Counted from the first letter of the stretch, positions 13,071 to 62,079 are shown. The stretch is 64,000 bases of DNA from Ruditapes philippinarum (GCF_026571515.1 NW_026858341.1:558001-622000), one strand, 5' to 3'. Translations and numbers: made by a program. Notes: generated by a model not told the origin, from the letters alone.

Positions 13071-13417
13071 GTTTTTTGTTTTTCTCTATTTTAATTATCA
13101 TCTTAATTTTTATGTCTCCATTTGTCTAAATTATACATTTATTTGTTAAAGATTATATCTTTGTCTGGACACCATTCTGAACACCTATAAATTAATTTAA
13201 CTTCTTTAGAATATTTGGACATATATAACGGCAAAAAAACTTTTAAAACATGATCAGTACATGTATTAGGTTTTTGTTAGAGTGATCATTAAAGTAACTA
13301 TTCACGCTATCATGTGTTTAACGTAAGACGTGCATTTAAAAGGTGATGTCATCAGTGGTGAAAATAAATTAGAATAAATTATTGAGTTTGAAAAAAAAGT
13401 ATTCTTCCTATTTAGAT

Positions 13418-37964: not shown

Positions 37965-40900
37965 TCAGTTTTGTATTTTTGAAAGCTGACAATGAGGACA
38001 TCGGATGTGACATCGTAGCTTTTCCTTTGCTAATTGGACAACAAACAGTCCATTTCTCGATGAGATATTTTTCATGACCTTTACTTCTGGTATCGATATC
38101 TTTGTCCATCTTAAATCTTTGGGGAATGTGCTCGCCAGAAGTTCTTCATGTCGAATATAGCTAATATCTTGATCAAATAAGTACCAACTGTTGTAAAATC
38201 TGATCCAATAGCCGTTACAGAAAAGATAGTCCATCATTTGGCCATTCGATTCAAGCTCAAGTAGCTTTATCTGGTAACTTTGAGATGTGAGTGACCAGTA
38301 GGTACGCGTCAAACAATAGCAACGATCGTTGTTATATATGACAAACCCATTATTTGTCGAAGACAATGTATATCCTGTATCCTGCTCTAAACAAAATGTT
38401 TCCATTTTGTAATTTACAAAATCAAACAGTAAAACAGAATTGTTCTCTTTTGAGAGCAATGCTACTGTAGAACATGTACTATTTAAGCATGCTTGTGAAA
38501 TTTCAATGTTCCTCAAAGACAATATTGGTACAATTTCTACATCTCCAATATTGACGTTTCCAATGTAAACCGTGGTATAAATCGTATCTTTGACAGTCAA
38601 ATTCTGATCCTCGCTACGAAATAGTGCTGAGTATGGTTCTTCATTATCAGAAATAATCTTTATTCTGGCTCGTGATGATTCAATACCAATGTTACTTGAT
38701 GAAGGTCCGGGACACTCTGCATCAATATGTATATAATCAGCAAGTGTTTCTATAATTTGAACATTTTTCCTGGTGAGAACAAGCAAAGTGTTATCTGCTA
38801 GGCATACATTTGTAATTGTTTTGTCACATATGTCCTCATCTTTCAGGGCAAACTTGTACTGGTGTATGTTGTGAGTTTCTAAATTCAAGGTCGTAAATAT
38901 GGGCATCAAGTGACATTCGGCATTAAAATATACAATGTCACTTTTGGTAAAATATACCTCAGGTGTTGTGTTCCTAATGCCAGAAATATTTCTATGAAGG
39001 ATATCGTAGCTGTTTTCCGGAATCAATTTACACCAAGTGTCGCTTTGAAGATCAAGGCCCAAAAGAGAACCTTTCTCGCCAGACATAATCAGTACATCAC
39101 GTTTGCATTCACTTCCATGAGGCGTTATTACAACATCTTTTGACAGTAAAATTTCGTTTACCAGTTTAACAGAAGATGCTTCCCTCAACACAGAATCTGT
39201 TACATCTTGTATGTCAATTGTTTCAAATAGTTCAATAATATTTGTTTTTATCTCATCGGAGTTTTCTCTGATCCATTTTATTAGAAACGATAACCTTTCG
39301 TCCATTGTTACATAGGAAAGCCTTTCATCCGTAAAAAATCTTTTGATTAATTCCTTTGAAAATTGCAATGCCTCCTGTTTTTGCAAAACTTCGGGCAAAT
39401 GGCTTTCTATATAAGCCATACAGTTTGGAACTTCAAAATTGTATACCGAGGATAGTTGATAGACGAACATGTGTGTTTCTTCTGTAATTTCAGAGGAACA
39501 CAGCCAATTAATGCAGTAAGTTTTAAGACCTGCAATCATAAAGTATTCTGCTTGTTGAAGGAGAAGCTCTACATTGTCTACGTTTATATCTGGCACCACG
39601 CCATATAGATACATGATGGCCATTTCAACTGAATTGGACGTACCAACACTCACTTCCACCACACCTGCAATAAAATTCATTTTAAGATATAGTTATAAAA
39701 CTCCTCCATTATCGTCTATAATTTGCAAAGATTTTGTGCAAGACAAAAGCTATCATTTCTTACGCATCTTCATCATCATGTTTAACATTGTACACTGTAA
39801 CAAACAATAAAACAGGCAAACGCAAAAATAAAGACGATAAATGATATCCACTTAATGATATAGCTGGCTTGAAACATATCAATAAATATATTCTATTTCG
39901 ATAGACGATGATAACGTCAACATCGTTTCCGTCATATCGAAAGATAAAACAAAGCACGAAAGAAACAAATTCTATTGTAAACAAATGATAGACATTGTAA
40001 TTCTGGCAATCTCGATACGGATATTTTGTAGAATAGAAAACCATATCGGAAGGGAGGATCACACATTCCAGGACCACCATCCGTCTTCTCAAGACAAGGA
40101 CTATACTTACACTGACTGATCGGTGCTGTATCGTACTAACTTATATGTCGTTTAACATGAATTCCTTTAATTCAATAATTAAATCTATTAAATGCTTTTA
40201 TATTTAGAAATTTGACTTTCATTCTTGAGCCAAAATTGTCAGGATCAAAGTGGGAAATGCGGAGAGACCACCAAGCCCCCGTCAATATTCCCGTGCTCCC
40301 CAAAGGGTAGATCCTGTAATTTAACTACCTCTATTCCAAAATAAAAAAAAACTGTAATTATTTATGGAAAATATATATAATAATTTTTTTATTAAACTTA
40401 GTTAAACGCCCGCTAAATGTTATTTCCGTTCTTGGGGACACAAATGCACACTTTCAAACGCAGTTAAATGAAATCGGAAATATTAAAAACAGTTAACGAA
40501 AATCGCAAAAAAACTTTGCAAACTGAAAGAAACACTTTTATGAAACAGAATTTGAACGATGCACACAGGCATAAATTTGCCAAAACAGACACGGACTACA
40601 GATTGTTACTTAAAAAAGAGAAAGAAAAATACCTAACTGACAAGCACATTATTTTGATTGTATATCCTTCGTCTTGACTTTCAGTAAATCTACACCTAAA
40701 GTCATGCAATCATCAACAGATAACACTTTTTATTTCTAATCAATAAATAGAATTATATTATAGTTTAAATTAATTCATATATTAGTGACATATTAAGTTT
40801 GTAGACATTAATGAAGGTGAAAAGAATGTTATACACTCTTTGAGTATACTTAAACCTATTTACCATTTTGCTTTTCCATAAAGTTTGCTCTTATTGCTCT

Positions 40901-41235
40901 GTCAAAATAAGGACTAGTGACCAGCACGCATCGGTGAAATCGTTTTGTCTGAAAAGGTAAAACAAATTTTACCTGCTTATATAAAGATAAAGTGAGTGCC
41001 TTCTATAGATATATCAATATATCAAAGTAATTGGTAAACATGTAAAAATGAATATCTTTCAGAATGATTTGACATAAACTAATTCATAGCAAAGTTTCAA
41101 ACAATTAATCATTTCTTGTTATAAAAAATTTACCCATAATCCAACGTTCACTGTGAAGTCACACAGCATTGATTGTTCCTCAACTTGTTGAACAAGGTAT
41201 CTGAATTTGGATTTTGGTTTAAAATGTTTCTCCAT
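37965..41235 (-). CDS. BTB-BACK protein A (Kelch-like family N-terminus, divergent beta-rich C-terminus), about 628 aa
   Basis: Exons 41235-41134 (MEKHFKP...MLCDFTVNVGLW), 40948-40864 (TKRFHRCVLVTSPYFDRAIRANFMEKQN), 39664-37965 (VEMAIMYLYG...NVELLLQQAEYFMIAGLKTYC; BACK ...RLSFLIKWIR...; ends KLRCHIRCPHCQLSKIQN). Phases 0/1, GT-AG. Confidence 0.9.
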
Positions 41236-41974
41236 TTTTTCAAGCCATCTAAACCTGACTGGAATGAGAATTAATCCTTCTTTATGATACGCAGTTTCCT
41301 ATTAAAATATTTAAGCACCATTAATACATTATTCACATATTAATACGCCATGCACAAGTAATATGCTCGGATTACATATAAATATATTGCAGAAAACTAC
41401 ATATAAGAATTTATTTAAAGTATCTTAGAATATGATAACAGTAAACCATGGTAAACCGTATGGGACCTGTCCTCCTATCCATGATTTTGAGTTATTTGCC
41501 TGCTCTTAAATTTTATGATTTATTATATTTTTTAATTTAAGAGCAGATAAATTATAAGTTTAAAAAACCATATTCTATCTATTGGTTTACTATTAGCTTT
41601 TCATTATACGTATCAGTGGAAACAATGCTAAAGTTCCCTTCAAACAGTTTAAGTAATAAATAGGAAAACCAGCATCAACAAATAAGGGTGGCATTCAATT
41701 AATGCAGACTTAATCAAACGACTAATAACTATCCTTGATATTTTAGTAAATCACTCAATTAAAATTAATGTCAGATGAATAAAATGCAGAAAAAATGCTT
41801 ACTTTGTGAGATATATACCCTTGAATTAATGCAAAATTTTCAAATTTAAGTTCAGATAAAACTCGAACGAGTTTGTATTCCTATTTTAAGAAAAAACATA
41901 ATTATTTTTATTTTGTAGTAACATATGCCTTTTTAAAGTTAAAATATCATAAATTACAACCTGGAACTAGTCCG

Positions 41975-42545
41975 GATTTTTGTCACCCGCATTGAAATCC
42001 CGCCAACAGTTTGGCCGGTAAAAGCCGGACATTATTTTTGCTATTTTAAACTCTGGCGACCATTTAGTGCAGTGAACCGGAACGTGCCGGCGATATGCAC
42101 GCTAAAGACAGGTAGTGATCAATCTTGTGAAATATTTTTCGAAAGTTCACAAGCAGTTTGACATTTGACAGCCGGACAAGATTTTTCTATTTAAATCTCT
42201 AGTTGCAATTTTTTTGCAGAAAAGCTAAACGTGGCAAAGGTATGCACAGCAAAGGTTTGTAATGATCACTCCCATCAAGTTACATCGAAATCCTGCCAGA
42301 AGTTTGTCCGGTGAAAGACAATATTTTTTCTATTTGAAGCTCTGGTGGCCGACTTTTGCAGCAATGCTGAACGTGCTGGCGTTTTGCAAGTCTAAGGTAG
42401 GTACCTTTCACTTATGTGAAGTTTCGTTGAAATTCCACTTGCAGTATGACCATGACTTTCCTATTTATAACTACTTTGGCGGCAAATGTGTGCAGCAAAG
42501 CGGAACGTGCCCACAATATGCACAACGGAGACATAATTACGTGTA
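41975..42545. repeat. Degenerate about 130-146-bp tandem repeat, about 4 units, in the A-B intergenic spacer
   Basis: CTATTTxAAxTCTGG...GCAG...GAACGTG anchor at about 42041, 42187, 42330 and 42461. Confidence 0.65.
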
Positions 42546-43471
42546 ACATTATTTATAAGGATATAGAATTGTTAACAATTCGTATTAGTTAGGAATTTTT
42601 ATGACTAAAAATGAAATTATATCAAAGCAATTTTACAGGACTATGTTATACTTTAGTTTTTTATTAAATAAATCATAAAGAACATTTACCTGATGAAAAT
42701 CCGTACGTTCAAAGAACTAAAATTTCAATTAATGTATTATGTTAACCTCCCCATATCTATTCACCTTTTTAACTCTGGCACAATCACTAATCAATAGTCA
42801 TTACGTACACTTGTTTCATGTATGTGTTGGGTCTATTTTTAGAAGACATTATTTAAATATATATACTCTACAGATAAGATATGTGCAATTTTTAATAACC
42901 ACCGAGAAGTTGTTTTCAATCAATCAATTATTGTTGGGTCGTAAGTTTTAATTTTAATATTGAAGTTTTAATATTGTAATTTAGGTTCGCAAACGATTGA
43001 TTGGTTGATCAGTGATTTAGATTGATAAAAGGGCATACTTCCTTTCGTGGAAATTGAAGTTATATTTGGACATTACGTAGTTTCATGTGACCTAAAATAT
43101 ACATTTAGGTCCTAATCTTCACGTGAAGTACGGAATTAAAAAAGAATTTATAAATAAATATTACTTGACTATGTAAGTAAACCATAATGGTATTCTTTAC
43201 AGAAAACTTACAGAAGATAATTTAATGTCATTAGATAATTTGCTTTGCTCAAATAACAATATAGGTTATAATTATGTACTATAATTTTAAGCTTTCTATA
43301 CATGTCTTCTATTCATCATGTTCGATTATTTAAATTGTTTGTCATTTACGCATGCATATGCGTGTTCATAGGCGAACTATTACGCATGCGCATGTGTGAA
43401 ATGTAATAAAGTGGACTGAAAAACGAAATTACTGATAATTACTAGACTTTTATTTATATATTATCAAGAAA

Positions 43472-45983
43472 ATGGAGGTTGAAAAGACACATGATCCGGA
43501 GTCAAATTTCGAGTTCCTCGTTCTCCAGGTTGATGAACAATCCGAATTTTGTGACGTCACAGTCATTAGTGGAGATTGGGTTAGTTTATAAAATGTTGTT
43601 CTTTTTATAAATTGAATGTACTTTAATATCATAATTTAAAAAATATTCTTTTTATAATATGAATTAAATATATAACCACGATAAACATGTCTGAAAATTG
43701 TTGTTTATTTCACACTTTTTATCAAGATAAATACATATGCTATTTACAATTTTATATTATTACTAATTTGCAAAACAAATGGAAAGATGGAAGGCAAATG
43801 TGATTTGTGAACCTACATAGACGACAATGGAGATGGCCCAGTGAAACACACACTCACTCATAATCTTTAAGTCTGCATTCTAAATTTTTTGTTTTTGTGA
43901 AATGATATTGTCAGAAAATACCAAATATTTAAAATGGTATAGAAGTGTTTAGTGTTAATGCTAAATTCTTTAACTGATTTAAAATTTCAGAAGAAGAGAT
44001 TTCATAGATGTGTGCTTACAGCAAGTCTACTGTTTCAGACCATAGTAGACATACAAATTGGCAACGCCAAGACAGGTAACACTATACATTAGAATAATAT
44101 TTACAGTGACTTGAATCTAGGCAAAAAAAACCTTATTTGAAACATTCTTTTTTGTCTATCAAAAGTATGATAATTTTAATAAGATGTATTTTTAATTTCT
44201 AGGCAATGTTCTTGAGAAACATGGCAGAATACAGGATACCAAACTTGAGATAATGATTGACACGTCCCCTGATGTTGTGGAGATGGCAATTATGTTCTTG
44301 TACGGAAAAGTCCCTGCGTTTACTATCAGTAATATAGGGGACCTTCTGGAATTAGCAGAATACCTAATAATACCAAGCCTAAAACATGCCTGCATAGATT
44401 GGCTGGAACAAATAGATTATTCTAAAGTAAATTGTATGCATGTCATCAAATTGTCTACAAAGTTTGATTTTGATATAAAGACTTGCAAAAAATACATAGA
44501 AAGTCATATACCAGAGACGTTTCTCCTTGATGAGGCAGTTGACCTTTCCTTTGAAACAGTGGAGTACTTTTTCAGGGATAAAAGATTTTCGTACGTAGAC
44601 ATGGACGTAAAGTTGGGATTTCTTATAAAATGGGCGAATAAGCATCCTAAAGAGTCGATGAAAATAAGTGTCAGTCAAGTAATAGACACAATTGATCTAA
44701 AGGAAGTATCCATTAATGTTTTGGAAAAGGCAAAGAATAATGCTACTTTTAATAGTCTGATCGATTTAGAAAACAGAGTTTGTCAATCGAAGCAAGATTA
44801 TTTCAGAAAACGTGTGCTGATAATGGCATCTGGGGAATCTTATTTTGCCTGCTTAGATCTTCAGGAAAGCCGTTGGTATAGATTACATTCTAGATATTTC
44901 GACAGATACCGATATCGTGAGGAAATTATCGGTGTAAGAAATGATAACCCTGAAGTGTGTATGGAGGAAGTTTATTCTAGTAAAGATATTATGACAACTG
45001 TTGACTTAGAATCTGATGAGATACGTACATATAGGCTTCAACTAGAACTTGACTATTTTACAGATAAAGATGAAGATATTGTCGATGTAGAGATCGCTCA
45101 TGTTAACTTAAGCAACGATATTGTAGTTGCAGTAGTACAAATAACTGTACAAATCTTTGTTCATTGTGATATTCACCAAGATGTACGGGATAACTTTTCT
45201 TCCGGTGACGAAAGGGAATGTCAAGATATTATAAATGCCGTCTTGCAGACACAAGTCTGTCGCGAAATCAGTTCAAACGAGAATGGGGACTATGCCTTAT
45301 GCGTCGTACATTTACCAGGAACAAAAGATATTGTAGAACCAAGTGCAGGATCATCATCATCCAGTTACACAAGAAATGTCACAAGCTTATTCATTGGAAA
45401 CACTTCGGAAGAAGATGTAGAAACGCAACCAGTGTTTTCTTTTCGGAATGAAATTGTAACTCAAATGTGTATGAATAATCGTTCTGTTTTGGCTATGCTA
45501 ACAAAATCAGACAATTTCGTTCATGTGATACTGTATGACGTATTGAATTATAAGATGGACCGCTTATTAACGTTGCAGAAAAAAGAGTACGAAATTTGTC
45601 CGTCTGACAATGGCTTTATTATCTACAATGATACTAACTGTTTCTGTCTGACAAAACTATCAATACCATTCTTCTCTAAGACTTATAAGATTGAAACATT
45701 AAGACTGGAAAATGGAGTAGGTTGGTTTATCAAGTATCGCTATCAATGTGGACTGTGGATAAGAATATTACGCAGAAGCTTGAACGATGATCTTGAACTC
45801 CAATGTGTATCGCATGAAGAACTGGCTATGAGTCATTCTTCACAGGATGTAAATTGGAAAAATATGCCTATTCCTGAAGACAACACACTTTTTGAGAATC
45901 GCAGTGATCTAGAAAATGCTTTTGTAGTTCCTTTATCAAAAAGAAAGCTACGATGTGATATTGCATGCCCACATTGCAAATAA
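43472..45983 (+). CDS. BTB-BACK protein B, about 657 aa
   Basis: Exons 43472-43579 (MEVEKTHDPE...EFCDVTVISGDW), 43991-44075 (KKRFHRCVLTASLLFQT), 44203-45983 (VVEMAIMFLYG...LLELAEYLIIPSLKHAC...KRKLRCDIACPHCK*). Same intron positions and 85-nt exon 2 as gene A. The stop codon overlaps AATAAA. Confidence 0.92.
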
Positions 45984-46719
45984 ATAAACGTGTCTTAATA
46001 TTATCCATAACTTAGTTTGTTGAAATCATATAACATGTTTATTAATCATCTGACGATACAAAAATGAATGCAACTAGGCCAATCTCTCGCGTTTAACCAC
46101 GTTTTGCACGAACTCATATGTGATATGATTGTGTAAGCTTTAATTGATACAATACATGTGTAAATCAGTTCAGTCGAGTTTTGACAATTGGTTGATTAAC
46201 ACTATCTATTCGTGTATACTAAAGCTTAAATGGTTGGGAAAAGGTCTCCTTTCACTGACCAATAACTGTCCTATTTTAATTTTACGGACGGTGTCGACTA
46301 ACGGACAGTCAATAGAGGAGGACTAAAATGGGGACAATATCTGAAATCAAAGTGTTTGTATTCATATTAAGGACATCAAACTAAAATTAAACTTTCATGC
46401 CATGTATGTTTTGATTAAACCCTGTGTACTGTACGGTAGAATACAGACACTATTAGATTTATATGGTATACGGCAATTTATGTATCAATAATATATTCCT
46501 TCATACACACCGTCACCAAAGAGTAAAGGGTTTCAATGTTTAAACTTCATTATGATTAAGATTTGCTCTCTTAAGCAATGCTTGGCTTCAGGATCATTTC
46601 GAATTTTCACTCAGCTAATCAATAACTAGCATTCACATTTTTGCATTTCATTAGTTTCATTTTTTTTACTGATGGGTGACGAAATATTAACGCGTGTGTT
46701 TTTGTATGCTCAAATAATG

Positions 46720-47450
46720 TTATGCGCCAGGTAATCTGTTCGCCCATCTGTTAATAGTTTTCGTGTCCGGTCTGTATCTTCAGAATAGGTGGACGGAAAT
46801 GGAAACTACAGCAATATTTATCATGATGAGTAATGTGCAGAGCGCAAGTTTGACCAATTTTTCTGTATCCATTCCAAATTCTGTGTCCGCACTATATCTG
46901 TTGAACCGATAGAAATAACTTAAAACATTTTGGGAGAAATATTACTCATAATGAGACGGTGTACAGAACACAGGTTCAGGGTTCCCGCGAAACAAACTTG
47001 CTACACTCAGTGGATTACTTTATTATATAGACTTATATATGAAGACACATTTCAGTTCCACTGTGTGAAACTACAATGTATAGATCCTTAGATATTTGCA
47101 TGTAGCATTGCCTGGTTGACCTTTACAAAACTGATATGAATCATGTCCCTTGGTTCAATATTGCCTCCTACCCAGGGACTTATATATAAAAATTATAACT
47201 GATACTTATTATGTGAAACTACGATGACAAATGATTCGGTAATTGGCATTTAACATCACATTGTGAACCACAACATAACTGGTATTAATCATGTCTTAGG
47301 TCAATATTTGCCTCGTCAAGAATTTAGGTATTTGGCATGTAGCATCAATCTGTAGATGTCTACAACTGCAAAGTTATATCGGTCATGACCATCAGGTCAA
47401 AATTGGTCCTGCCCTGTGAGTCGCTTGTTTTAACTAGACTAAGGTGTAAA
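46720..47450. repeat. Degenerate interspersed repeat with internal tandem subunits
   Basis: Two to three diverged copies of TGTGAAACTAC...TTGGCATGTAGCAT...AATCATGTCCC...GGTCAA(T/A)ATTG(G)C. Boundaries approximate. Confidence 0.45.
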
Positions 47451-48454
47451 AAAACACCTCTTTTCTTCATGTGGATAAAGTATTATGAATTTAGTCATAT
47501 CATATAAACCGTATTAGCTCTTAAGATTTGACATTACTGGAAATAGTAGACGTGTGTCCCTTTTAAATGTCAGATGAGGTCAAAGAGTCATGCACATTTT
47601 ATAAAATTTAAAAAAAGAACTTTTTTTTCAACTTACATGAAGTTTATTCATTTATTTAAATGACATCACAAGTAAAGCGATGAAAAAATACATATCAGCA
47701 TACTTCAAATAAAGAATGTTTCAACGTCTTTTTTGGGGAGGTCGTGGGGGGGGGGTGGGTTGGGGTTGTGGAAATGTTGGTGATAAATTGTTAGCACCAT
47801 CAAAAATGAAAAGAAATCTAGCACCATCATTGCTTTTATTGACAGAGATGTTCGGTAAATACCAATGCCAGTGGCATTAACATCTATGCTTGTATGCCTA
47901 GGTTTTGATTTATGTCAGGTAAATGACAGTGTTTTTCTAATTGTGTGTCGAGTAGTTTTGTATACATTTTCATTATTTTGTATAGTCTAGGTTTCTGTTG
48001 TACGAATGTAACAACGTGTTATTTCTAACGTTAATCATACTTTTTCAATCATAACTGGGGTAAATTATTGATACAATATGGGTTCTAGTGATTTCGATAG
48101 TATCTCCCCGACGACAAAGGCACGGTATTCTATGCTTATTTATTGTATTGACATTGTGTATAAATACGTAACTACTGTGTCAAGTTGCCTTATGTAGATA
48201 GTTTTTACACTAGTGTAATATCTAGCTGTTTTAAATGGGTTTATCTAACGCTATCTATATGATAACATGTTATTTATAATGTTAAGCATGCTGTTCTTCC
48301 TGTGGTTTCGGAATGGATGAAATGCCCGCTTCTTTAGTTTCCTGTCTTACCACAGACACGATAAGACACTTATTAAATAAGGCTTTGATATAATCTTCTT
48401 GATTCAATAATTTAATTGTACAACAGTACAATCTTATGTTTACTCTTTCATCAT

Positions 48455-48461
48455 CATTATA

Positions 48462-48517
<56 letters not shown>
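48455..48517. repeat. (TAT)n microsatellite
   Basis: About 18 TAT units; explains the poly-Tyr ORF 48416-48673. Confidence 0.95.
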
Positions 48518-49154
48518 GTGATAAAGTGCATGCTTACAGTATACTATATATTGTTCCTCCGTCGGTCAGCGTATATTCACTGCCATTACCTTATTATTAT
48601 TATTTTAATTTCTCTTACACTAATTAATCAATACAATTTGATGACATACCTCATTTTTCCGCTCGTAATTTAACCACCACACATGCTCACAGCAGATACG
48701 TATTAGACGTTTACTTGCAAACATGAGATAACCCTCTGACAGTCCCTTTTGTTTTCAGTTTAAGCTTGATATAATCTATTAATTTCTTGCATATGTAATA
48801 AGATTACCAATTGTTTACACAGGTGCTAGGAAACCCTGTTTTACACCCCCTTTAAAAGACAAGTCTCGTACTTTAAATAACGTAATTTCCACGCGCCTTT
48901 TTATGATTGAATTACTTTATTAAGATTACGTCATTTTGCCGTTATGAATCAAGTTGTAAATTCAAACAATACTATTAAATAAAATTGCAAAATAAAAATT
49001 ATGCTTTTTCGATATTTCATTTCAAAATATCTTTAATATAATATGTGCAAAAGAAAAAATCAATCACCGGTTGTTGTCAGAGACAGGAATATCTAGCTCT
49101 CGGGGAAACTTGGCAAATCCTTTTTACCGCCGTAAACAATTGCCCGTTGAGCTA

Positions 49155-49470
49155 GATATTCCGGTCGGTATCGACAGCCGAGGTAAGATCCTTATAGTAT
49201 TCTTTAAAACATAACATTTACAGCTACTGTATTAATAAAAGTTTTCAACAACAAAAAAAGATTTTTGTCTTAGACAAACATTTCATGTAAAGAGAACGAT
49301 GTGATTCCACTGGGATATTCCGGTCGGTATCGACAGCCGGGGTAAGATCCTTATAGTATTCTTTAAAACATAACATTTACAGCTACTAAATTAATAAAAG
49401 TTTAAAAAAAAAAAAAACGATTTTGTCTTAGACGAACATTTCATGTTAAGGGAAAGATGTGATTCCACTG
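49155..49470. repeat. Direct tandem duplication, 2 x about 158 bp
   Basis: GATATTCCGGTCGGTATCGACAGCCG...GATGTGATTCCACTG at 49155-49312 and 49314-49470. It overlaps the right arm of a palindromic MITE (GGAATATCTAGCTC...GAGCTAGATATTCC, about 49060-49195). Confidence 0.9.
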
Positions 49471-52187
49471 TGGCATTTTTACTGTCTTACGATAACATTC
49501 TTTTATCAAAATAGATGATGTCCCTGTATTTTCCTAATGAAGTATTGATTAGAAATGAAACTAATGATTTACATGAAGAAAACTATTAAATCCCAATCCC
49601 ATTGTTAGGCATGTGACCAGCTTGTATTATTTCTGAATAAAGCATTTTTCTAGAAGGGAGGGGGTGGGGCGGTTACGTCGAACCAGCACAGTATATGTGA
49701 TTTTCAAGCTTAATTGGTGGAAGAAAATCTCAGTAAATTATTTTGTTTAAAGTCAACGACAATAACCACTCGTCCCGGACACCTTTGCGGTATGCTGTGA
49801 CATACTGAAATTTATGTTAAAATGTTTAAAATCGTACTGTATTTTTGGTTCAAAATTATGATTTTACAAAAGATGTATCTGTGCAGTATGTATTTATAAA
49901 ACACAACATAAAACTGAGACATGTTGTCAAATTGATCTAAAACAATCTAAATGAGGTATTACTTTCGTTGGAATGTTTTTTCTAACTTCTAGTTCACTTT
50001 TTTGTCTTCAAACTCGTTCGGCTTTTTCGACTTAAGACATAATTTTAGTTACATTATGAGTAATAGCTTGATTTTTTTAACAGGCGCCTATTTACATAAT
50101 GATGTATTATTTATCATCGTATCAAGCATTAGTCTATGTGTAATTACATACATTTTTGTATTTATTTTTTATTTTAGAAAACTGCAATAAGAAATGTCTT
50201 ATACATCGCATGTCCTCATTGCACTAGTTTATTAATATGATAATACGTTTGACTTAAAGAAGGAAAACATATCACAGGGTTTTAGTAGCCGGCGTGGCAT
50301 GAGTCTAAATTGAATCATTTTCATTAGTTGAATCGATAATTTTACAATTCATAAAATGCATTTTCATTAGATAAATTGATATATTTTTTGATAAAGACTG
50401 CATTAGTAAACTATTGAAAGTTTTTTATAGTGGTTCTTGTTTTAATCATAATATAAACAAAACGATGCAGGCAGTCAGATAATATGATTAAAGTTTAAGC
50501 TAACGGCGACCTTGCCGCATTTGTAAGTTATAGTTTTTATGTGTATGTTAATACCTGTTTGTTGTTGTATTTATAAATATAGAACCTATAATAAAACAGA
50601 AATTGTACTTTGTGCGTTGTGTTATATAAATAGCAAACTCGTGGTTAATAAAACATTGGATTGAATAAACAATACAAAATGATATAGAATGGAAGTTGTA
50701 GTTCAATATTATCATATCAAATAGCTAGATTCTACATTTACGAAAGACAAAATTACGGCACAAAAAACACCTGTTTTTCAGAAATAATTCAGAGATGAAC
50801 CCAATACTACCTCAACCCTACCTCTTCAACACAAATAAGGAATAAACGACGTATAGCTGTGAATGGATCATGGGTAGGCTGCAATCCAATATAAACCACT
50901 CGGTGGAATTTTTGGGTCGCTTCTTACTACATTTAAATAAAGATAGAGATTAGATTTCACAAGACAACATTCAGATTGTTTACCAACTGGACAGATTAAG
51001 TCTTCTAGAAATAATGATGACTTCACATAGCCGTATTGACCATGAAAAAGTTCAATGCTGTATTATAGGAACACCTTATATAAACACTTAAAGCCACTCT
51101 CAAGAAGATAACGGAAAATTTAGTGTCGTGATTCAAAATATCTCTTCAAACAAACCAACAACTTAAAAGTTATCAAAATTTCGCTTGTTACCGTTCAAGC
51201 AGTGCTTCCGAAAAAGTCTTCTTTTCCGCTATTTTGAAATGCCATCTTTAATTTCACTACAAATTTTCTTTCATCCGCGTTATTTCCAGTATTCACCTTA
51301 TGTTTCACATGAACTGAGACACATGACAAGGATTGCTTTGATTTTCATATTTGACGTAATTTGTATAAAAAGAATAGTCAAATTGGTTAATTTCATCAAA
51401 TATATAGTGACCAATATATATGAAAATATCAACTTAAACTTAAGTTGAAATAGGATTAGAGCCATTCCAGCTTACACATTAACTAATGTTGAAATACGGT
51501 CCGTAGCGTGGGGCTGTGACAAAATTAAACATTAATTTGATAATTCGGGCGAAAAAAACATTCTGGTCAACTTATGTGCTAAAATTTACGAGAACAACTA
51601 GTAGTTAAAAAAAGACCTTCTGTCGACTAACATCACTGTTATGAATGGATACCTAAGTTAACCAGACAATAAACAAGCTTCATTTATACTTCATTTCAGT
51701 GCTGTTATAATTTTCTGGTTCTTTCAGGATAATTGATTCCACCCCTTTTAAGTGTTAAAAATTGTGTACCGCTCAAGCTGCTGCTAGGGGCGTGAGACAT
51801 GTTGCATTTTCCCCCTAGCCTTCATGTACAGACTCACTGAAACCGAGTCTGTAATTCTCATGTAATTTTGTTGTGATAAATTCTTCCGAGTGATCAACTT
51901 TTTCAGATTTATATCAAGATATAGACCAGGGTGTAATTTTTTGTAAAAGATGTTCTTGCCATCTGTTTTGTGTAATCTATACAAACATAGAATAATTATC
52001 AAAATGGTCAGTAAAATTGATTTTTGCTTCCAATGTTGAGCTGATTAAAGATCGTTACGTTTTTATATTGTCAATTTGACAACCTAACACTTTATTAAGT
52101 ATTTTATTTGCCTTCTCTAATTTATAAAAAGCAAAGGGGGATTCTCTAAATTAATTACGAACAAACATCTTTAAATATACAATACTA

Positions 52188-52350
52188 GGTGCCTCCATGA
52201 CTGAGTGGTTAAAGTCACCGGCTTCAAATCATTTGTCCTATATAGGTGTACATTCGAATACTGGTACCGTCAGACGATCGTGAGAACACCTGAAGTCTAC
52301 TAAACAGGTAAGCTAGATAGTCACCTTAATAGACTTTAAAACCAACAAAT
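52188..52350 (+). mobile_element. Degenerate tRNA-derived SINE
   Basis: GCCTCCATGACTGAGTGGTTAAAGTC...CTTCAAATCATTTG...TTCGAATAC...CACCTGAAGTC aligns with the 13418 copy. Confidence 0.6.
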
Positions 52351-52364
52351 AGATAAATACAGAA

Positions 52365-52630
52365 TCCCTAAAGAAAGCCCAACACGGCAAAATTGAAAAT
52401 GTTGCAGGCTCGGTTTGATTGAGCCTGTTCATGGACGGTACTGGAAAGTGCAAGTTACCGTCCACCGCCCCCTAGCACCGGCTTAAGCAGAATTAAACAT
52501 TTAAACATGAAATAGTAAAATTTTGAATTTAGAAACATCCGCAGATGTGTTCATACGGCGGTTATCATGGAACCTTCAATGTGACACTACCGTGCCATTC
52601 CATGAAAAGCGGCGTATGGTCCCCAAGTAA
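52365..52630 (-). mobile_element. Dispersed about 260-bp repeat family, copy 2
   Basis: Reverse-complement match to 12808-13070. Confidence 0.75.
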
Positions 52631-53029
52631 TAAAAAGCGTGTGCCCTAAACGAGAAAACAATGGGCGGAACTAAATAAAATGGAATTTTGAAAGGGGAAA
52701 AAACAAACTTAATCTTCCTGAAAACAGGATAATGTTTAATCGTTAAAATGATTGTTAAAAATATCAATATGAGTCCTGACATCTATTTTGAGTGGTCCGT
52801 AAATTTTCAACAGAAGCTTATCCACCAAGAAGTAATATAATACATGTTCAGATATGTGTTTGTTTTAGTTTAGCCATGTGGTAAAAGTGTTCAATAGACG
52901 GAGCTTTCATAGAATTTTATACTTAAAGTTTGCCGACAAGAGCATTCTGCATAGCTGCTGTTGAAATCAAGTTCAAGTCTGGTCGCCCGGGTCAATATAT
53001 CTAACATATTCCAAAGCCGTACATAAGCT

Positions 53030-56000
53030 TTATCGCTCAGAATATTTACAATGTGGACAGTGGATATGACAGCGAAGCTTGTTCTTTGATAATTGCACTG
53101 CAAATATTTCATTGTCTACTAAAAGTTTATGCATCATCTTGCTGTCCGGTATAGATATTTTTGTCCATTTTAATTTTCTGGGGCATCCACTAGTCAGAAG
53201 TTCTTCATGACGAATAAAGCTCATTTCTAAATTCGGATCAATATAACATAATGTTTTGTAAAGTTTGATCCAAAAACCGTTGCAAAAAAGATATTCTGTC
53301 CTTTGGTCATCGGATTCAAGCTCAAAGAGCTCAATCAGGTACCTTTTAGATGAAAGTGGCCAATATATATTCGTCAAACAATAACAACGCTTGTTGTTAT
53401 ATATAACAAATCCTTTGTTTGTCGTAGATATTTTATAATCAGTTGCTTGCTCTAAACAAAATGTTTCCATTTTGTAACTTATAAGATCAAACAGTATCAC
53501 AGACCTTTGGTCTTTTGGAAGTAAAGCGACTGTAGAAAGTGTGCCATTAATACATGCCCGTGAAATGTCAATGTTACGCAAATAAAATATCGGTAAAATT
53601 TCTACATCTTGACTTGTAACATTGGCAACATGAAAAGCGGTATTAACCGAGTCCTTCACAGTTATACTCTGGTCCCCGCTTCTAAAATATCCTGGGAATA
53701 ATCTTTCATCATCACAAATGATCCGTACTCTGATTCTTTTTTGTGATGATTCTAAACCTGTGTTACTTGATGAAATCCCAGGGCAATCAGCATCAATATT
53801 TCTATATTCCGTTTGATTACCAGCAAGTGTTTCTATAATTTGAACATGTTTTCTTGTGAGAACGAGCAACGTGTTATCTGCTAGGCATACATTTGTTATT
53901 GTCTCCTTAGATATGTCCTCATCTTTCAGGTAAAATCTGTATGAGTTTATTTCGTTATTTTCTATATTCAAGGTCGTAAACATAGGCATCAAGTGACCTT
54001 CTCCTTTAGTAAAATATAACTCAGGTTTTGTGTTCCTTATGCCAGAAATATTTCTATAAAGAATGTCGTTGCTGTTTTCAGGAATCAGTCTATACCACGT
54101 GTCGTTTTGAGGATTAAAGCATAAGAGGGAACCTTTCTCACCGGTCATGATCAAAACATCACATTTACATTCGCCTCCATGTAACGTGCTTCCCACATCG
54201 CTTGAAAAAATAATCTCATTCAATATGTCAATACAAGAAGCTTCACGCAAAAGAGAGTCGGTAATATCTTGTAAATCAATTGTGTCAAATAGTTCCTTAA
54301 CATTTGCCTTTGTCTCATCCGAGTTATTTCTTACCCAGTGCATTAGAAACGATAAACGTTCGTCCATTGATACATAAGAGAGTCGTTCGTCAGTAAATAG
54401 CTTTTGGATTAATTCCCTTGAAAAGTACAGTGCCTCTTCGGTTTTGAAAACTTCGTGCAGATGGCTTTCTATGTAAGCCATACCATTTGGAACTTCGAAA
54501 TTATACACCGAAGCGAGTTTCAGTACGTATATGTAAGTTTTTTCCGTAATTTCAAAATCACGAAGCCAATTGATGCAAGTAGTTTTAAGACCTTCAATCA
54601 TGAAGTATTCGGCTTGTTGAAGAAGTATCTCTACATTGTCTATGTTTATATCTGCACAACGCCATATAGGTACATGATTGCCATCTCAACTGAATCTGGG
54701 GTACCAACACTTACATCGACCAGTTCTACAATAAATGTACAAAATGCACTCGACATGTGTGATGAGCAACATGTCTTATACCCCTTTCATGATAACAACA
54801 ATAAAACAATTGTATTACACTAAACTCAGAAAATGCACTTTGTGCACTTTGTATACTTAATTTCGTTTGATTTACTTAAAATTTAAGTATGTAAAACTCA
54901 TTTCTATTATTCAGGTAACCTTATTTTATCTTATGTTTCAATTTTAAATAGATCTGCGATATTAAAGAATACATTGGTTTCTAAAATCAAGACGAAATGA
55001 CTGTTATACACAATACGAATAAGAGTTGTTTACCTGTTCGCTTTTCTGTAAAATTTGCACTCATCGCTCTATCAAAAAAAGGACATGAGACAAGCACGCA
55101 TCGATGAAATCGTTTTGCCTGAAGAATATATTAAAGACATTATGGGCTATAATAAAGCCAAACAAAGAAAAAAATAACGGAATTCCTTAGGAACGGCCAA
55201 AACAGCGAAATCAAAAACGCTAAGGTTCCGTTTGGTTAAGCCTGTTTATGGGCGGTACTTAACAGGGCAAGTTACCGTCAAGTCTGCCTAGCACATTGTT
55301 AAAGTAAGAATTCCCAACATGAAACCGGTTTTGATATTTAGAGGTTTAAAATACTTGGGTTTTTTCGCCCATTATGAGATAGTGGACCCCGAAGATGTGC
55401 GAAAATTGGTCTGAGGGCCGCAGGCCCGACCGGAAAAATTATGGACTCAAAGGGCCTCATCCGCAAAAATTGGCCGAGCAACAACCAAGTATTAACGTCT
55501 TTAATACCTATGTCCAAAGAAAATACGGCATTTAGACATTCGCCGCCTGATCTCTTTAGTTGTCGCCACTTTCTAAGAAAACGAACAGTGGTCCAATGTA
55601 AAACAATTATCTTCATTCAGTTTAACCTTCATTTACTACTTTGAAAACATGACAAAAAAACAGAAATATGAGACAAATATTGTTTTATTGTTGTTTATCA
55701 AAAAATTTACTTTTAATATAGTTTTGTAAAATAACTTTTGTCCCCATTTTTTTTATGAATTTTTTGGCCTTCAAGGAAGGGTTTTTCCGAACGATTCTAG
55801 CTCTTTTTTGCCATCATCCCCACCCTTTTTTTTCCCCCTAAAAATAAAAATCGTTTTTGGAAATTCGGGGGGGTTTCATTTTTTATTTTGAGTAGAGTTA
55901 TTGTATTTTTTTCCCTGATTTTTTAAAAAACCCTTAAATGCCCTAAGTTTGTGTTGATAGAGACGGGATTACGTCTTTTAAACTTAACATTTTGTTTTCA

Positions 56001-56800
56001 AGTGACTACAGTTCATTCAACTTTTAAAACGACAGAAAGCCCACCCTTAAAATCACTGATAGTTGTTTAAACCTTTCTTTTTCACGTGCGCTCATTCACT
56101 CGCCCATTATGGAAAAATAATGCCGAGTATCAAGGCGGCCGAAATTGCAAAATGACCTAGATCTTGCCATAATGACCCTGAAATACCCTTAATTTTGTTA
56201 CTATATATAGTAACATAGGTATTAATGTGAATTAAGAAACATCTAAACTTTTGCCTAGAACAATTAAATGTTCTCATGTGTACTAGCCTACATTGGAGTA
56301 TGTTTAATTTAACATCAGGCTTCACTGTAAATCGTTCTTTGTAATAAGGTAACTGGGATTTGTTTTGAACAACAAACACAAATTACATAATGGAGGCTGA
56401 TTTCCCTCCTACATCTAAGTATTAAAATTAATTTAATTAATAAGCATACGTCTAGTGGAGTGCCAGAAGCCAATGACCAGTATTCGTGATGGCTTTACAA
56501 CTTGTTTTTCATGTTTTAAGAATATTTCACTTAATGGGTTTTTTTTCACTTATTTTAAAAGGGGCATAGGTTTAAAACAAAAATTTTAAAATTTAAGTAA
56601 AGGTAAAACCTGAAAACCTCAAGACTTACAATTCCCTCAAAAACTGATTAAATTTAAAATGTTTAAATAATTTTGATTTTAACGAATAACTTTTTTTCCC
56701 CAAAAATCCAACTTTAACTGAAAAGTCACACAAGGGGTTTTGGATCACCAATTGTTCAACAGTATTTTAAATTTTTGGAGCTATCTTAAACCGCTATATT
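53030..56800 (-). CDS. BTB-BACK protein C (paralog of A); frameshifted and corrupted as written
   Basis: Exon 3 54725-53030 (one base missing at about 54654: GTG CA GAT vs GTG CCA GAT in A; ends KLRCHIHCPHCKYSER). Exon 2 55118-55034 (AKRFHRCVLVSCPFFDRAMSANFTEKRT, 85 nt). Exon 1 remnant about 56800-56700 (LCDFSVKVG) lies in a homopolymer-corrupted patch. The 523-aa ORF is otherwise clean. Confidence 0.8.
55185..55340 (-). mobile_element. Dispersed about 260-bp repeat family, partial copy 3, in intron 1 of gene C
   Basis: GTTTGGTTAAGCCTGTTTATGGGCGGTAC...GCAAGTTACCGTC...CCTAGCAC matches 52410-52480. Confidence 0.65.
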
Positions 56801-58995
56801 TTTCCCTAAAATTTAAAAGGTTGTCCAAACATGGCTAAAATTTATAAGATATTACAATATTTATTAATTTTTTGTTTTTGTGTTGGCGGTTTGTTTTGGG
56901 TTTTTGAAATATTTATGCATTTTAAGACTTTTAAAAAAAAAATTTGATTATTAAAAAAGTTGTAAAAATTTTTTCCCAAAACCCATTTTTTAATTGCCCT
57001 AAATTAAACCTTTTCTACACATTTTTAAAAATTTTGGTCTCTTTTTCGTTGGGAAAATTTCTTTTAATTTTAAGATTAATGTTTTTATAATAGTAATCGA
57101 ACTTTAAAAAATACACACATCAAATTTTTGATAACTAGTAATTAATTATTCAAAAAGAAAACTACAATATTTTACCTTCCGAACTTGTAAAAATCTAGGC
57201 CACCGTGTGCGAGATACAAAGCTTAATCACAAAGATAACGCATAGTGTAAATTTTAAATGACTTATGTTTCATGTATGTGTTGGAGCTATGTTAAGACTA
57301 GATGTCACATTGATATCGTTCGTTTTATCATTAAAGTGTAAAGTTTAAACTGTTATATAACATTTGTTGTATATTTGTATATTTGATTACTGAAATTAAA
57401 AGATTTTACCTTATTCACATGAAATCGAGTCGTTCAAACAATTTACACTATTTAAGCTAGAAATAACTATTCTTGTATCTCCATATTCCAGCGAGTTGTT
57501 ATTTCATTTTTATTGACTGAAACATGTTCAATACGTAGAAAAAAGATAACCAAATAATTTATGCCTTCAGTGACATGTGATTTATGTATGTGTTGGATCT
57601 ATTTTTAGAATAAATTTTGTTTAGATATTTAAAAATTTACAATGTATGAGATCACCGCCGGTTATTATCTAGATTTGACGTAGCTAGGACATATCATAAA
57701 CATAAAACTTTATTTCGTGGAATTTCGAGAAATTGTGAAGCTATTTTGGATGCAACGTAATTTAGTTAAAATCAGCCAATATTCGTTCGTTAGAAATATA
57801 AAAAGGTAAGATTTTATTGGTTATATCTTTAATATAATTACAAATCATGCATTGATCTTTTTCTGTCCTTTTAATCACATGTTATATGCTAAGATAGATT
57901 TGATCTATGAGGAAATAATTTCTAATAAAATCAAAAGAAATCGAAAGAAAATTATAATATATCCAAAACCCCTAAAGAAAAAAATTTTTTAAACGAAAAT
58001 TGGGGTAAACCCCCAAAGGGGTGTATTCTTTTGGAAAAAAAAGTAAAAAATATTATTGTTAAGGGTTTTTCCCCAAAAAAAGGGAAAACAATAAACATTG
58101 AGGGGGCTTTAGTGGATTTTTTCTCCCCTTGATAGAAAAAAAGGTTAAACCAAAAAGTAAAAAGGTTTCCCAAAAATTTGGAATCATTTTTATTTTTTTC
58201 GTTGGGTTTTTTTTTAAGGGCAGGTTGATAAAGTCTTAATCCCAAATTTTTTCCCCATGCTTTAAACCCAAAAATTTAAAAACCCTTTAAATAAAAAAAA
58301 GTTTTATTTTTGTCAACAGATTCCCCCACTTTTTCGCAAAAATTTTAAACTGAATTTTTACAAATGAAACATAAATTGCCCTAATTAATTTAGTTTTCTT
58401 CAAAGAAATTTGGCGATAAAGTCCGAGTAATCCAATAGCTTAGGACCTACCTATTTATATGGAGTACTCAGGGGAGGTTATTCACTAAAGTCCCTCATTG
58501 CAAGGCGTCAAACAATTTCATACACGGCATGGAAATTTGACGTCATTTATTATTATGACAATATTTATAAATTACTCTATAACTATTGATGATAATGAGT
58601 GAAGAGAACTATCGATTTATACACTTAGATAATGAACTTGACATCATTTAAATGTGTGTAAACGTTTTTACAGTAATTGATAGACTATATTAGAATATTA
58701 AAATCTTGTGATATAACTTCATGCTAGTTTTACTCTGAAACAAATACTGTTTAATCATGTCCATATGTGTAATGAATGATAATGCTTGAATCAAAATATT
58801 TTAATGTATTTTGTAATGTAAAATAATGACACAATCCCCCACGTTTCCCTGAAAACACGTTTTTAAAAAAAAAATACGATCTGGTAAAATAACGGGGGAA
58901 ATTTTTCGTTTTGTAAAATTTTGGGTGCTTTAAAATTGTGTGGGTTTTATTTTTTTTTTCATAAAAAATTTGTAAAATTTGGTTGGGGCAGAGGA

Positions 58996-61900
58996 ATGGA
59001 GGGTTTAAAAAATTTCAAACACGACCCTGAGTTTAAAATTTTAGGTCTTGTTCATTTAGGGGGGCGGGGAAAAAGCCAATTTTTTTGGGCGTTTACAGTT
59101 TATAAAGGGTGATTGGGGAAGTACCTATCTTCTTAAGTATATTATTTTTGTTTTCAAGAAAATTATGAAGAAACACTAAAATATTCTTTATTTGTCAATG
59201 TATTAAATATCAAACTATGTTAAACATACAGATAAGTCTCTTTTATATACGGTGATGAGTTTATATACTTTTTCTTCAATAAAACATTTTCTTATCAAAA
59301 CAGATAATAGCCTGCATGTGATATGGCATTCCTGAAAGAATAATTATGCTCATAACTAATTTGCATAAAGTATATAAGGTACAAACGACAATATTCGAAA
59401 ACACTATATAGTTTTGTAAGATTTCAAGTCGACACATTTTAAAATTTCACTTGAGTTGTTTTACTTTAGGAGGTTTAACATCATGACATAATATATCGTC
59501 CTTGGCGAAACCACAGGTTCCCGTTTGTGAAACTAATTTAACAACATAAACGTCCTATTTCATAAAAAATAAATATATTTTGCATTATGTTGATTCGAAA
59601 TGTATATCGAATAGCGTTAACGCCTCATTTACCATTGTATGTTTATCAAAAAATTGACCTTAATTTTCAGAGAAAGAGATTTCATAGATGTGTGCTTACA
59701 GCAAGTCTGCTATTTCGTTCCATTATAGATACACAGATTGCGAACCCAAAGACAGGTAATTTTATACCTAATACGTCCATAATGTCCCAGATATTTTTTT
59801 TTTATAATTTTTATTTCTATAAAGCTTTTTCATTTTTGATGTTTTGTTATAGTTTCCAATTAGTAAGTTATTGGCCATATTGCTGAATAATATTTTGCAG
59901 TTAAGTGATTTAGTTTCTTGTTTAGAAGGCAACATACCAATTTGTTTACATTTTTCTTCTTTGGTGACTAATTATTTCACATTTATACATGCGATAGGCT
60001 TCTAGGATGATCTCTAAAACCATTATTTTAATGTTTAAAATTCATATTTACGTGGGGAAAATTGTAATTGAGGCATGTTTTCATTTTTAAATGTTACCTT
60101 GCTTGAAATTGAATTGTTGATAAATACGTGCAATACCGTCAATGCGTCAATGTAAATTTTGTGACTTGAATAAATCAAACAATTTCGCTTAGTATGCCAT
60201 AATCATAAGTGCCTTTTCACGAAATATGTATTAATTTTAGACAGTGATGATGGGAAAACTGACAGAATACAGGATAGGGAACTTGAGATAAAAATAGACA
60301 CTTCCCCTGATATTGTTGAGATGGCAATCATGTTCATGTACGGAAGAGTCCCTGCATTCACTATCACCAATATAGGTGATCTTCTAGAACTTGCAAAATA
60401 CCTCAAAATGAAAGAGCTAAGGCATGCCTGTGTAGATTGGTTTAACTCCGTAGATTATTCGGAAATAAATATTATCTATGTTCTGAAATTATCGAAAAAG
60501 TATGATTTTGAAATTCCTGCATGTATCCAATTTTATCGAAAAATTTATTTTTCCAGGGAAAAGTTTCTACATCAGAGGGGCCCCCCGATCTTCCCTTTAA
60601 AAACTTTTGTCCCGTCTTTTTTCACTGATGGGGAGGTTTTCAAAAGGGACCCAAAAAGACGAAAAATTAAAAATTCCTGGGAATTTGTTTTGAATTTGGT
60701 ATACAACTGATTCGGCGAAAGATTTTGTTATCAAATTGTTTAAAACTCTTGACTTATCCGAAGTAACGCAATTATTGTGGGAGAACGCTAAAAAAGATGC
60801 AAAGTTTAATATGATCTTCCATTTAGAAAATAAAGTTAGACATACTTACCAAGAAAGTTCTAGAAAATGTGTGATGATAATGTCTGATGAAACTAAGTTT
60901 GTTTGTTTAGATCTATATGATAATCGGTGGTACAGACTAACTTCTAGCTTCTACGAACGATATCCATCCGACGAATTCCAGGCAGAAATTGCTGGTGTAA
61001 GAAATAATAACCCCGAAGTGTATTTCAAAGGACATGAAGATGTTTTTTATCGGGACAATGAAGAACATTTAATTACCGTAGACCTCGATTCTGATGAGAT
61101 ACATGGAAAACACCCCAAATTCCCCTTGAAAAATGATGATGTTTTCCCGATGCCAAAATTGATGACATTTTAACCCCCAAAAACACCCTAGAAATTTTTC
61201 AATTTAAGATAAGGGAGTCGCAATATTGAAAAGACTATTCAAATGTATGAAGATTTTAGTAGTTCCGAGAGTGAATCTGAATGTGTCGGCTCAAACCACC
61301 AGAATCAAAATCAGAATGAAATAAATTGTATCAGACAGCCGCAACATTCTCCTGGACTTATTCCAGATGCGAGCACAAGTACAATACATACAACAGGATC
61401 ATCTATTGATTGTTCTATGTTTAAAAAAGGCCGAAACGATAGAATCACTTTTACCAGCGTTTATGTCGGAGAGACTTCACACCACGACATTGAAATGAGT
61501 TCGTTGTTTTCTTTTCGAAAAGAAAACGTAACTCAAATAAGTATGAATAATGGTTCTGTCTTGGCTCTGCTTACCGAATCAGGAAATGATATGCATATAA
61601 TTCTTTATGACCTGGAGGAGTGTAAGATGGAACGGGTGTTGACCGTGCAGGAAGGACAATATGAAATATGTCCGATGGAAAATGGATTTCTTTTGCATAA
61701 CCATACACAGTGTTACTGTATTACGAAGGATACTGTACCAAGCGTCTCAAAAAGTTATAGGGTCCAGAAAATCATGCTGGAAAATAGGGAAGACTGGTTT
61801 GTAAAGTATCGTTTTCAAAATGGTGTTTGGATTAGAGTTTTGCGCCGAAGTATGGACAGTGATGTGAAGCTTCAATATATTTTTCATGACGAACTAGCAG

Positions 61901-62079
61901 CAAACCACTCCTCTTGTGATATAGATTGGAGGTCTGTGTCAATGCCTAAAGACGAATCTTTATTCCAGAATGTCAAGAATTTGAATAATGTGTTCATAGT
62001 TCCCCTTTCAAAAAGAAAACTGAGGTGTAATATTGAATGTCCACATTGCCGGTTTTCGGACGAAGCTGAATTTTTCTAA
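58996..62079 (+). CDS. BTB-BACK protein D (paralog of B); interrupted by corrupted patches
   Basis: Exon 1 remnant about 58996-59117 (MEG...HDPE...GDW-like). Exon 2 59671-59755 (RKRFHRCVLTASLLFRS, 85 nt). Exon 3 60241-62079 covers ORFs 60321, 60736 and 61243, collinear with B, ending KRKLRCNIECPHCRFSDEAEFF. Frame breaks are confined to about 60530-60735 and 61105-61240. Confidence 0.8.

Follow-up and report, generated by a model that had tools for sequence, protein, structure and literature searches.

A duplicated head-to-head pair of divergent BTB-BACK genes in Ruditapes philippinarum: a putative Cullin-3 adaptor and a partner with a remodelled Cullin-3-facing loop

Known BTB-BACK adaptors are mostly homodimers. 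The documented BTB-BACK heterodimer, KBTBD6/KBTBD7, joins near-identical paralogues encoded by neighbouring genes, and we know of no head-to-head cassette for SPOP and SPOPL. CRL3 substrate receptors are described as being defined by a φ-X-E motif plus a 3-box (PMC13061254), the motif being used by Cul3 adaptors in the α3-β4 loop (PMC3597819, PMC13061254), and the loss of its glutamate in KLHL3 E85A is reported to severely disrupt Cul3 binding (PMC3616122). BTB-BACK proteins are presented as often assembling co-translationally as homodimers, and BTB heterodimers as being removed by SCF-FBXL17 (10.1101/2025.08.25.672138). According to PMC8121430, KBTBD6 interacts with KBTBD7, both bind CUL3, and a KBTBD7 mutant blind to CUL3 acts as a dominant negative. 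The SPOP/SPOPL rheostat is outlined in PMC12159753 as a system where a paralogue tunes the Cul3 adaptor through mixed oligomers. Paired plant NLRs such as CHS3-CSA1 and Fom-1-Prv are described as head-to-head genes with a proposed division of labour (PMC11298796, PMC10883720).

The window analysed here, 64,000 nucleotides of Ruditapes philippinarum DNA, contains four paralogues, A to D, with a common three-exon structure and the arrangement A<- ->B, C<- ->D (Table 1). The spliced products of A (628 aa, without an internal stop) and B (657 aa, in an open frame) agree in length and exons with P0001 (RefSeq LOC132752895) and P0003 (RefSeq LOC132752896), respectively, and the first exons of C and D are garbled yet recognisable. 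GT..AG borders were found in all six introns checked (both introns of A and of B, and intron 2 of C and of D), and the intron phases are 0, then 1. A 23-letter exon-2 pattern occurs at exactly four sites in the window, those of the four genes, compared with a maximum of zero in 100 shuffles. Splicing and the pattern search confirm the initial annotation of four paralogues with one exon structure, phase 0/1 introns and an 85-nt exon 2. It had also placed A nearer to C and B nearer to D than A to B, and this holds: A and C share 77% of nucleotides in exon 3 and ∼64% of amino acids, B and D 66% of nucleotides and 53% of amino acids (418 clean codons), and A and B 38.5% of amino acids in a global alignment. 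The two types face away from each other in both pairs, as described earlier, with ∼2.2 kb between them; the start codons lie 2,237 bp (A-B) and ∼2,165 bp (C-D) apart.

Table 1. Coordinates of the exons, the A-B spacer and the shared spacer motif, counted from the first letter of the window
Feature	Coordinates	Strand	Remarks
Gene A exon 3	37965..39664	-	remaining BTB, BACK, predicted propeller, CxxxCPHC end
Gene A exon 2	40864..40948	-	85 nt; BTB helices 2-3 and F-M-E φ-X-E motif
Gene A exon 1	41134..41235	-	102 nt, start codon at 41235; matches P0001 residues 1-34
A-B spacer	41236..43471	.	2,236 bp; high-copy array of ∼145-bp units at 42036-42523
Shared non-coding motif, A-B spacer copy	42812..42863	+	660 bp upstream of B's start
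Gene B exon 1	43472..43579	+	108 nt; matches P0003 residues 1-36
Gene B exon 2	43991..44075	+	85 nt; I-G-N at site of A's F-M-E
Gene B exon 3	44203..45983	+	∼12 extra residues at start, in Cul3-facing loop
Gene C exon 3	53030..54725	-	A-type; 1-nt frameshift near 54653, absent from most reads
Gene C exon 2	55034..55118	-	85 nt; F-T-E motif retained
Gene C exon 1	56698..56832	-	approximate; garbled patch, likely assembly error
Shared spacer motif, C-D copy	57578..57631	+	second copy of core at 57266
Gene D exon 1	58997..59120	+	approximate; garbled patch
Gene D exon 2	59671..59755	+	85 nt; I-A-N, without glutamate
Gene D exon 3	60241..62079	+	B-type; garbled ∼60535-60705 and 61100-61225

The clam proteins resemble the KLHL/KBTBD adaptors (KBTBD2, KLHL11, KLHL3) in the order of BTB, BACK and C-terminal propeller, in their best structural matches and, for the A-types, in the φ-X-E motif. 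They differ in that none of 34 family members has a Pfam Kelch match at E ≤ 0.01, the propeller regions of A and B contain no GG, the propeller has a long low-confidence insertion, the end is a conserved CxxxCPHC, the Cul3 loop of the B-types is remodelled and named members come from imparidentian bivalves only. Analogous to the KBTBD6/KBTBD7 CRL3 (PMC8121430, PMC8201781), two paralogous BTB-BACK-propeller adaptors would enter one complex, if the A:B dimer considered below is real; KBTBD6 and KBTBD7, however, are ∼90% identical and both are described as binding CUL3, whereas A and B are far less alike and differ at the Cul3 face. SPOP/SPOPL is comparable in that mixed oligomers with a paralogue tune a Cul3 adaptor, but has MATH in place of the propeller and works by oligomer state, not by an altered Cul3 loop. 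The likeness to paired plant NLRs lies in the head-to-head genes and the proposed division of labour; the proteins are unrelated to A-D, and the clam pairs are known from sequence.

A profile of the C-terminal parts retrieved 38 representatives among 1.84 billion proteins. The species-named members (30 were looked up; the rest are JGI, ENA and Logan records) belong to Ruditapes, Mercenaria, Mactra, Dreissena and Mya, all imparidentian bivalves, and one Mya member is labelled KLHL7-like. Pfam recognises BACK in 25 and BTB in 23 of the 34 members, with BTB on B at E 1.9e-9, BACK on A (8e-7) and C (3e-8), and a precomputed PF00651 match on A. B falls below the Pfam BACK cut, yet aligns to the KLHL11 BTB-BACK structure (Z 18.5, rmsd 6.8, 250 residues), as does the A model (Z 20.0, rmsd 5.3, 248 aligned). 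Together, these Pfam and fold matches bear out the earlier description of the encoded proteins as BTB-BACK. The models of A (pLDDT 84.3, pTM 0.77) and B (pLDDT 84.7) predict BTB-BACK and, after it, a propeller containing a single long insertion of low confidence; six blades and a closing C-terminal strand are a reading of the strand list for the propeller predicted within the full-length models. The best Foldseek match of the A model is KBTBD2 (E 2e-15). Residues 265-652 of B match propellers, for example the KBTBD12 Kelch domain (Z 14.9, rmsd 4.5, 274 aligned), and here Kelch domains (Z 14.9, 14.4) rank level with propellers of other kinds, Sevenless among them (Z 15.1). As in KLHL/KBTBD proteins, the propeller is predicted to be the substrate-binding end.

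In a protein atlas, whole A lies nearest BTB/BACK and Kelch-like clusters (0.96); the C-terminal part of B reaches only 0.76, and no family is named. In 51 of 64 sequences (fragments and near-duplicates counted), a CxxxCxxC-type motif, mostly CxxxCPHC, lies close to the C-terminus, and many members are extended by an acidic D/Y/S tail, which A-D do not have. None of 213 pattern matches in metagenome scans was a relative, and two exact metagenome matches to the exon-2 pattern were set aside as GC-rich chance. The literature, searched by title and start of abstract, did not turn up an account of this family; the genes may be listed in the clam genome papers (PMC6831834, PMC11592408). Because the Kelch signature is absent, A-D are not filed as KLHL/KBTBD members, though they would work much as KLHL/KBTBD adaptors do. 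Judged by sequence, they are a variant of the KLHL/KBTBD kind, in a BTB-BACK family that is clam-restricted by its named members.

The frameshift in C, the garbling of both first exons and the two garbled stretches in exon 3 of D could suggest that C/D is a pseudogene copy in decay, or a second haplotype of A/B that was mis-assembled. This is highly improbable. Runs X23 and X24 (labelled RNA, raw reads), X1 and X5 were aligned to 40801-60800. A G is inserted at 54653 in 7 of 9 reads of X23, in 6 of 7 reads of X24 and in contigs of X1 and X5, and the frameshift of C is thus missing from most reads. Against the window, the X1 contig over C exon 1 shows 42 gaps and 32 letter differences, compared with one letter for the neighbouring contig, and so contradicts the garbled patch by many indels. 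The garbled patches of C/D are homopolymer-rich; together with the C frameshift they are most likely assembly errors. For the first exon-3 patch of D, at the end of the aligned stretch, no read repair was listed, and the second patch lies outside that stretch.

Synonymous divergence is high in both comparisons (dS 0.61 for A-C and 0.97 for the clean parts of B-D), and the lengths of intron 2 are 1199 versus 308 in A and C and 127 versus 485 in B and D. These values, several-fold apart in intron 2 length, and the unalignable introns exclude C/D as a haplotig of A/B. The earlier caveat that 53-62 kb might be a mis-assembled haplotype therefore fails. With dN/dS of 0.35 (A-C) and 0.34 (B-D), indicating purifying selection on both types, C/D is neither an alternative haplotype nor a copy that died long ago: both genes are real paralogues within a poorly polished stretch. 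RefSeq has incomplete models for C (truncated, 523 aa) and for the A-type gene on a 22-kb contig (206 aa), in the case of C likely due to assembly error. Relative to a baseline of nine chosen bins, read depth is 2.4-8.4x over C exon 3 and 2.3-3.9x over D exon 3, which points to further C-like and D-like copies, with the restriction that depth is no copy number and that the fast divergence of the B-types prevents a comparison.

A tree of 34 rows separates the A-types (A, C, P0002 and P0062, hereafter E) from the B-types (B, D and P0004, hereafter F) as two clades, each with support of 100/100, and places Mercenaria LOC128545887 as the sister of the B clade (100/99). A 17-row test rejects a single Ruditapes-only origin of both types (p-AU 0.0003). 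These trees indicate that the A/B split is older than the Ruditapes-Mercenaria split and that the pair was copied later. A clade of A and B is rejected (p-AU 5e-10), as is one of C and D (1e-46), and the clades of the two types, (A,(E,(C,P0002))) and (B,(D,F)), each with 100/100, are mirror images. By chance, two three-tip trees would agree in one case out of three. E, an A-type with a truncated model, and F each lie on a 21,947-bp contig, most likely the same one, which would make them a third A/B pair. No B-type partner of P0002, on a 54-kb contig, was found among the matches. The tally is two pairs seen, one inferred and one A-type without a found partner. The rejected clades, the E/F contig and the mirrored clades uphold the first reading of the locus, an old inverted duplication that gave two types and a later copying of the pair as a block, and the expected tree of two clades with matched pairing was recovered. 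Pairing of the two types across the family, which the first reading proposed to check, is not visible: other members occur in same-clade clusters, such as the Mercenaria sisters on a 91-Mb chromosome (consecutive accessions) and a Dreissena cluster on a 107-Mb chromosome. For Mercenaria, incomplete searches, without orientation, yielded a single B-sister as well as three further close members on one chromosome.

The explanation that we tentatively prefer, at somewhat less than even probability, is that the head-to-head pairs are kept. The A-type (A, C) would be a putative Cullin-3 substrate adaptor, and the B-type (B, D), with its remodelled Cul3-facing loop, would likely be a co-expressed, Cul3-poor partner that tunes or widens the range of A-type substrates sent for degradation; A:B mixed dimers would be optional, not obligate. 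Co-duplication, the mirrored clades and the location of E and F argue for kept pairs. Against them, the 2.2-kb proximity alone would have the genes copied jointly without any functional cause, the mirrored three-tip trees could match by chance, P0002 has no found B-type partner, dS is unequal between the pairs (0.61 versus 0.97), and the incomplete Mercenaria searches gave a single B-sister beside the three close members. Nearly as likely is that the linkage is neutral, A and B being independent homodimers that were co-copied owing to their proximity; following the old inverted duplication, A would have been the Cul3 adaptor and B a drifted or Cul3-independent scaffold. The same-clade clusters in Mercenaria and Dreissena favour this, whereas the retention of the arrangement in two pairs (likely in three), together with purifying selection on each partner, speaks against it.

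The Cul3-facing loop separates the two types. The φ-X-E motif was counted ungapped from a fixed anchor in 26 rows, with five rows lacking the anchor. F-x-E is present in all four A-type rows, and the glutamate is absent from both B-types that have the region (I-G-N in B and I-A-N in D, then ∼12 extra residues). Among the other non-Dreissena rows it occurs in nine of ten, the tenth being shifted by two residues. It is found in none of the five Dreissena rows, and glutamate loss is therefore possible without known pairing. Between types, the Cul3 loop is the least conserved part of the BTB domain, at 6/22, compared with 11-13/22 when A is set against three other paralogues. Helix 3 of the B model extends to residue 64 and is followed by disorder at 66-70. 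MAFFT places V-L-E from the low-confidence insertion of B against F-M-E of A, so the motif loss in B is alignment-dependent; D has no φ-X-E substitute nearby under either alignment. That A-types keep φ-X-E while the B/D loop is remodelled is new here, being absent from the first reading.

We infer that A may bind Cul3, that B and D would bind it weakly, and that the partners may share a promoter and form A:B dimers. The loop, together with the KLHL3 E85A precedent and the fold matches to KBTBD2 and KLHL11, argues for a kept pair of adaptor and Cul3-poor partner, although the alignment-dependence in B and the glutamate loss in Dreissena count against it. The Dreissena loss fits neutral linkage as well, but there the Cul3-face change following the B lineage is a difficulty. 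From these sequences, A and B may divide labour between a Cul3 recruiter and a partner with an altered site.

Complex prediction was run with two A BTB-BACK copies and one B, and alignments were not used. The A/A/B complex scored 0.48 versus 0.27 for the best control, with contact agreement of at least 52% between runs and partner pLDDT of at least 74; at scores of 0.60 or below lie 5 of 78 solved complexes that passed the mark and all four of the mismatches that did so. The prediction lends weak support to A:B binding, and likeness alone may explain the score because BTB dimers are solved. At the dimer face, A and B are identical at 25/41 positions, within the range of 21-28/41 for A with non-partner paralogues, and pair-specific co-evolution of the faces was not found by this measure. 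The complex score, along with KBTBD6/KBTBD7 and SPOP/SPOPL as described in PMC8121430 and PMC12159753, is consistent with optional mixed dimers in a tuned pair. The dimer faces without pair-specific likeness, and homodimer assembly with heterodimer removal as presented in 10.1101/2025.08.25.672138, count against such dimers and suit independent homodimers.

The initial annotation had gone further, to a possibly obligate heterodimeric CRL3 receptor under diversification, for example in intracellular immunity. In its obligate form, B would bind the target, possibly pathogen-derived, A would bring Cul3, and neither would work alone. The cassette copied as a unit, the asymmetric Cul3 motif and a complex score obtained with a competing second A copy agree with it, but the A-types retain all canonical BTB parts and on paper need no partner, one A-type has no found partner and most family members are not known as paired. 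With that score and the unspecific dimer faces, the obligate heterodimer is not supported so far and seems quite unlikely. Pairwise dN/dS is 0.19-0.65 by region, below 0.7 in every region tested. Between pairs, B-type divergence is ∼1.8-1.9x that of the A-type (A-C 0.47, B-D 0.85; C-E 0.27, D-F 0.52), in a branch-path comparison where E has just 197 residues and D is partly masked. The faster B-type would suit an obligate receptor; the low pairwise dN/dS and the absence of any link of A-D to immunity do not. Diversification for immunity is likewise not supported so far, at pairwise dN/dS of 0.34-0.35.

Also rather unlikely is a two-part ubiquitin ligase receptor in which target choice falls to a fast-evolving, Cul3-blind subunit and Cul3 recruitment to a conserved one. 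If true, it would be an NLR-like sensor/recruiter design in a head-to-head cassette that was copied whole, built from BTB proteins 38% alike and predating the Ruditapes-Mercenaria split, and it would have to evade BTB dimer quality control. A linked pair of 38% identity with one altered Cul3 face would offer a natural test of how mixed BTB dimers arise and withstand quality control, and would also test whether animals diversify ubiquitin-ligase targets via paired-gene cassettes. Even under neutral pairing, an unnamed bivalve family is defined, its propeller lacking the Kelch signature and its CxxxCPHC end conserved.

Both spacers contain high-copy repeat stretches. Aligned globally, the A-B and C-D spacers score no better than a shuffle and are unalignable apart from a 52-bp non-coding motif common to both (50.9 bits versus at most 39.2 in 100 shuffles). 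Because of the repeats and the failed global alignment, the equal ∼2.2-kb spacing is perhaps partly coincidence and is weak evidence. The motif is a candidate regulatory site. Its conservation in both spacers, like the purifying selection on both types, argues for kept, co-expressed pairs and against neutral linkage, to which the mostly unalignable spacers would in turn conform. Gene pairs with bidirectional promoters are described as having transcription starts <1 kb apart (PMC2670823); the 2,237 bp between A and B separate start codons, not transcription starts. A contig joint that skips 736 bp of the C-D spacer, with a 23-letter side and two reads per raw-read run, was discarded as unreliable. 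It would set the motif 683 bp from the start of D, compared with 660 bp for B.

The depth of X23 and X24 tracked repeats and DNA contigs with strands equal, and none of the 15 joints listed, when these runs were laid with X1 and X5 on 40801-60800, was a splice junction. As the RNA-labelled runs behaved like DNA, they have no bearing on expression either way. Runs X15-X18, guessed to be RNA, contain 0.24-0.27 of the words of 37900-46100, an observation that serves as a lead only.

The glutamate of the phi-X-E motif, through which Cul3 is likely recruited, is absent from all five of the Dreissena family members that cover this part of the protein (P0025, P0035, P0046, P0047 and P0058). Canonical Cul3 binding is thus possibly dispensable in parts of the family. 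At the C termini of the family a CxxxCPHC motif is conserved, which by inference is a candidate metal site. In many members it is followed by a long acidic tail of D, Y and S residues, which is nearly lost in the paired subclade.

The spacer between A and B contains a GCATGC-rich palindrome, similar to an NRF1 site; no such palindrome was seen in the spacer between C and D. Garbled patches in the region of C and D are likely to be unpolished long-read sequence. The annotated C protein (P0045) is cut to 523 aa, and no record for D was found. The decayed element next to D is taken to be of mariner type from its motifs.

Features of the window outside the coding regions of the two gene pairs, and patches of poor sequence around C and D
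Feature	Position	Strand	Location	Details
Tandem array	14460-15423			~100-bp units
EF-hand (calmodulin-like) gene	22883-26475	+		multi-exon; Pfam EF-hand matches, first and last exon frames
Tandem array	29033-31217			~200-bp units, alternating, 400-bp higher order
Array	42036-42523		within A-B spacer	~145-bp units; high depth in all four runs
GCATGC-rich palindrome	43346-43398		75-125 bp upstream of B start	two copies
Very high-copy short elements	51822-51896, 52347-52698		between the two pairs	read depth thousands of times baseline
Garbled patches	55500-59150, 60535-60705, 61100-61225			rich in homopolymers
Decayed mariner-type element	62164-63361		directly downstream of D	broken transposase-like frames, inverted ends

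Copies related to the very high-copy short elements occur elsewhere in the window, at 209-316, 12803-13091 and 55153-55279. Two of the sequencing runs, the raw-read sets X23 and X24, are labeled RNA-Seq and behave like genomic DNA over the mapped stretch (40801-60800).
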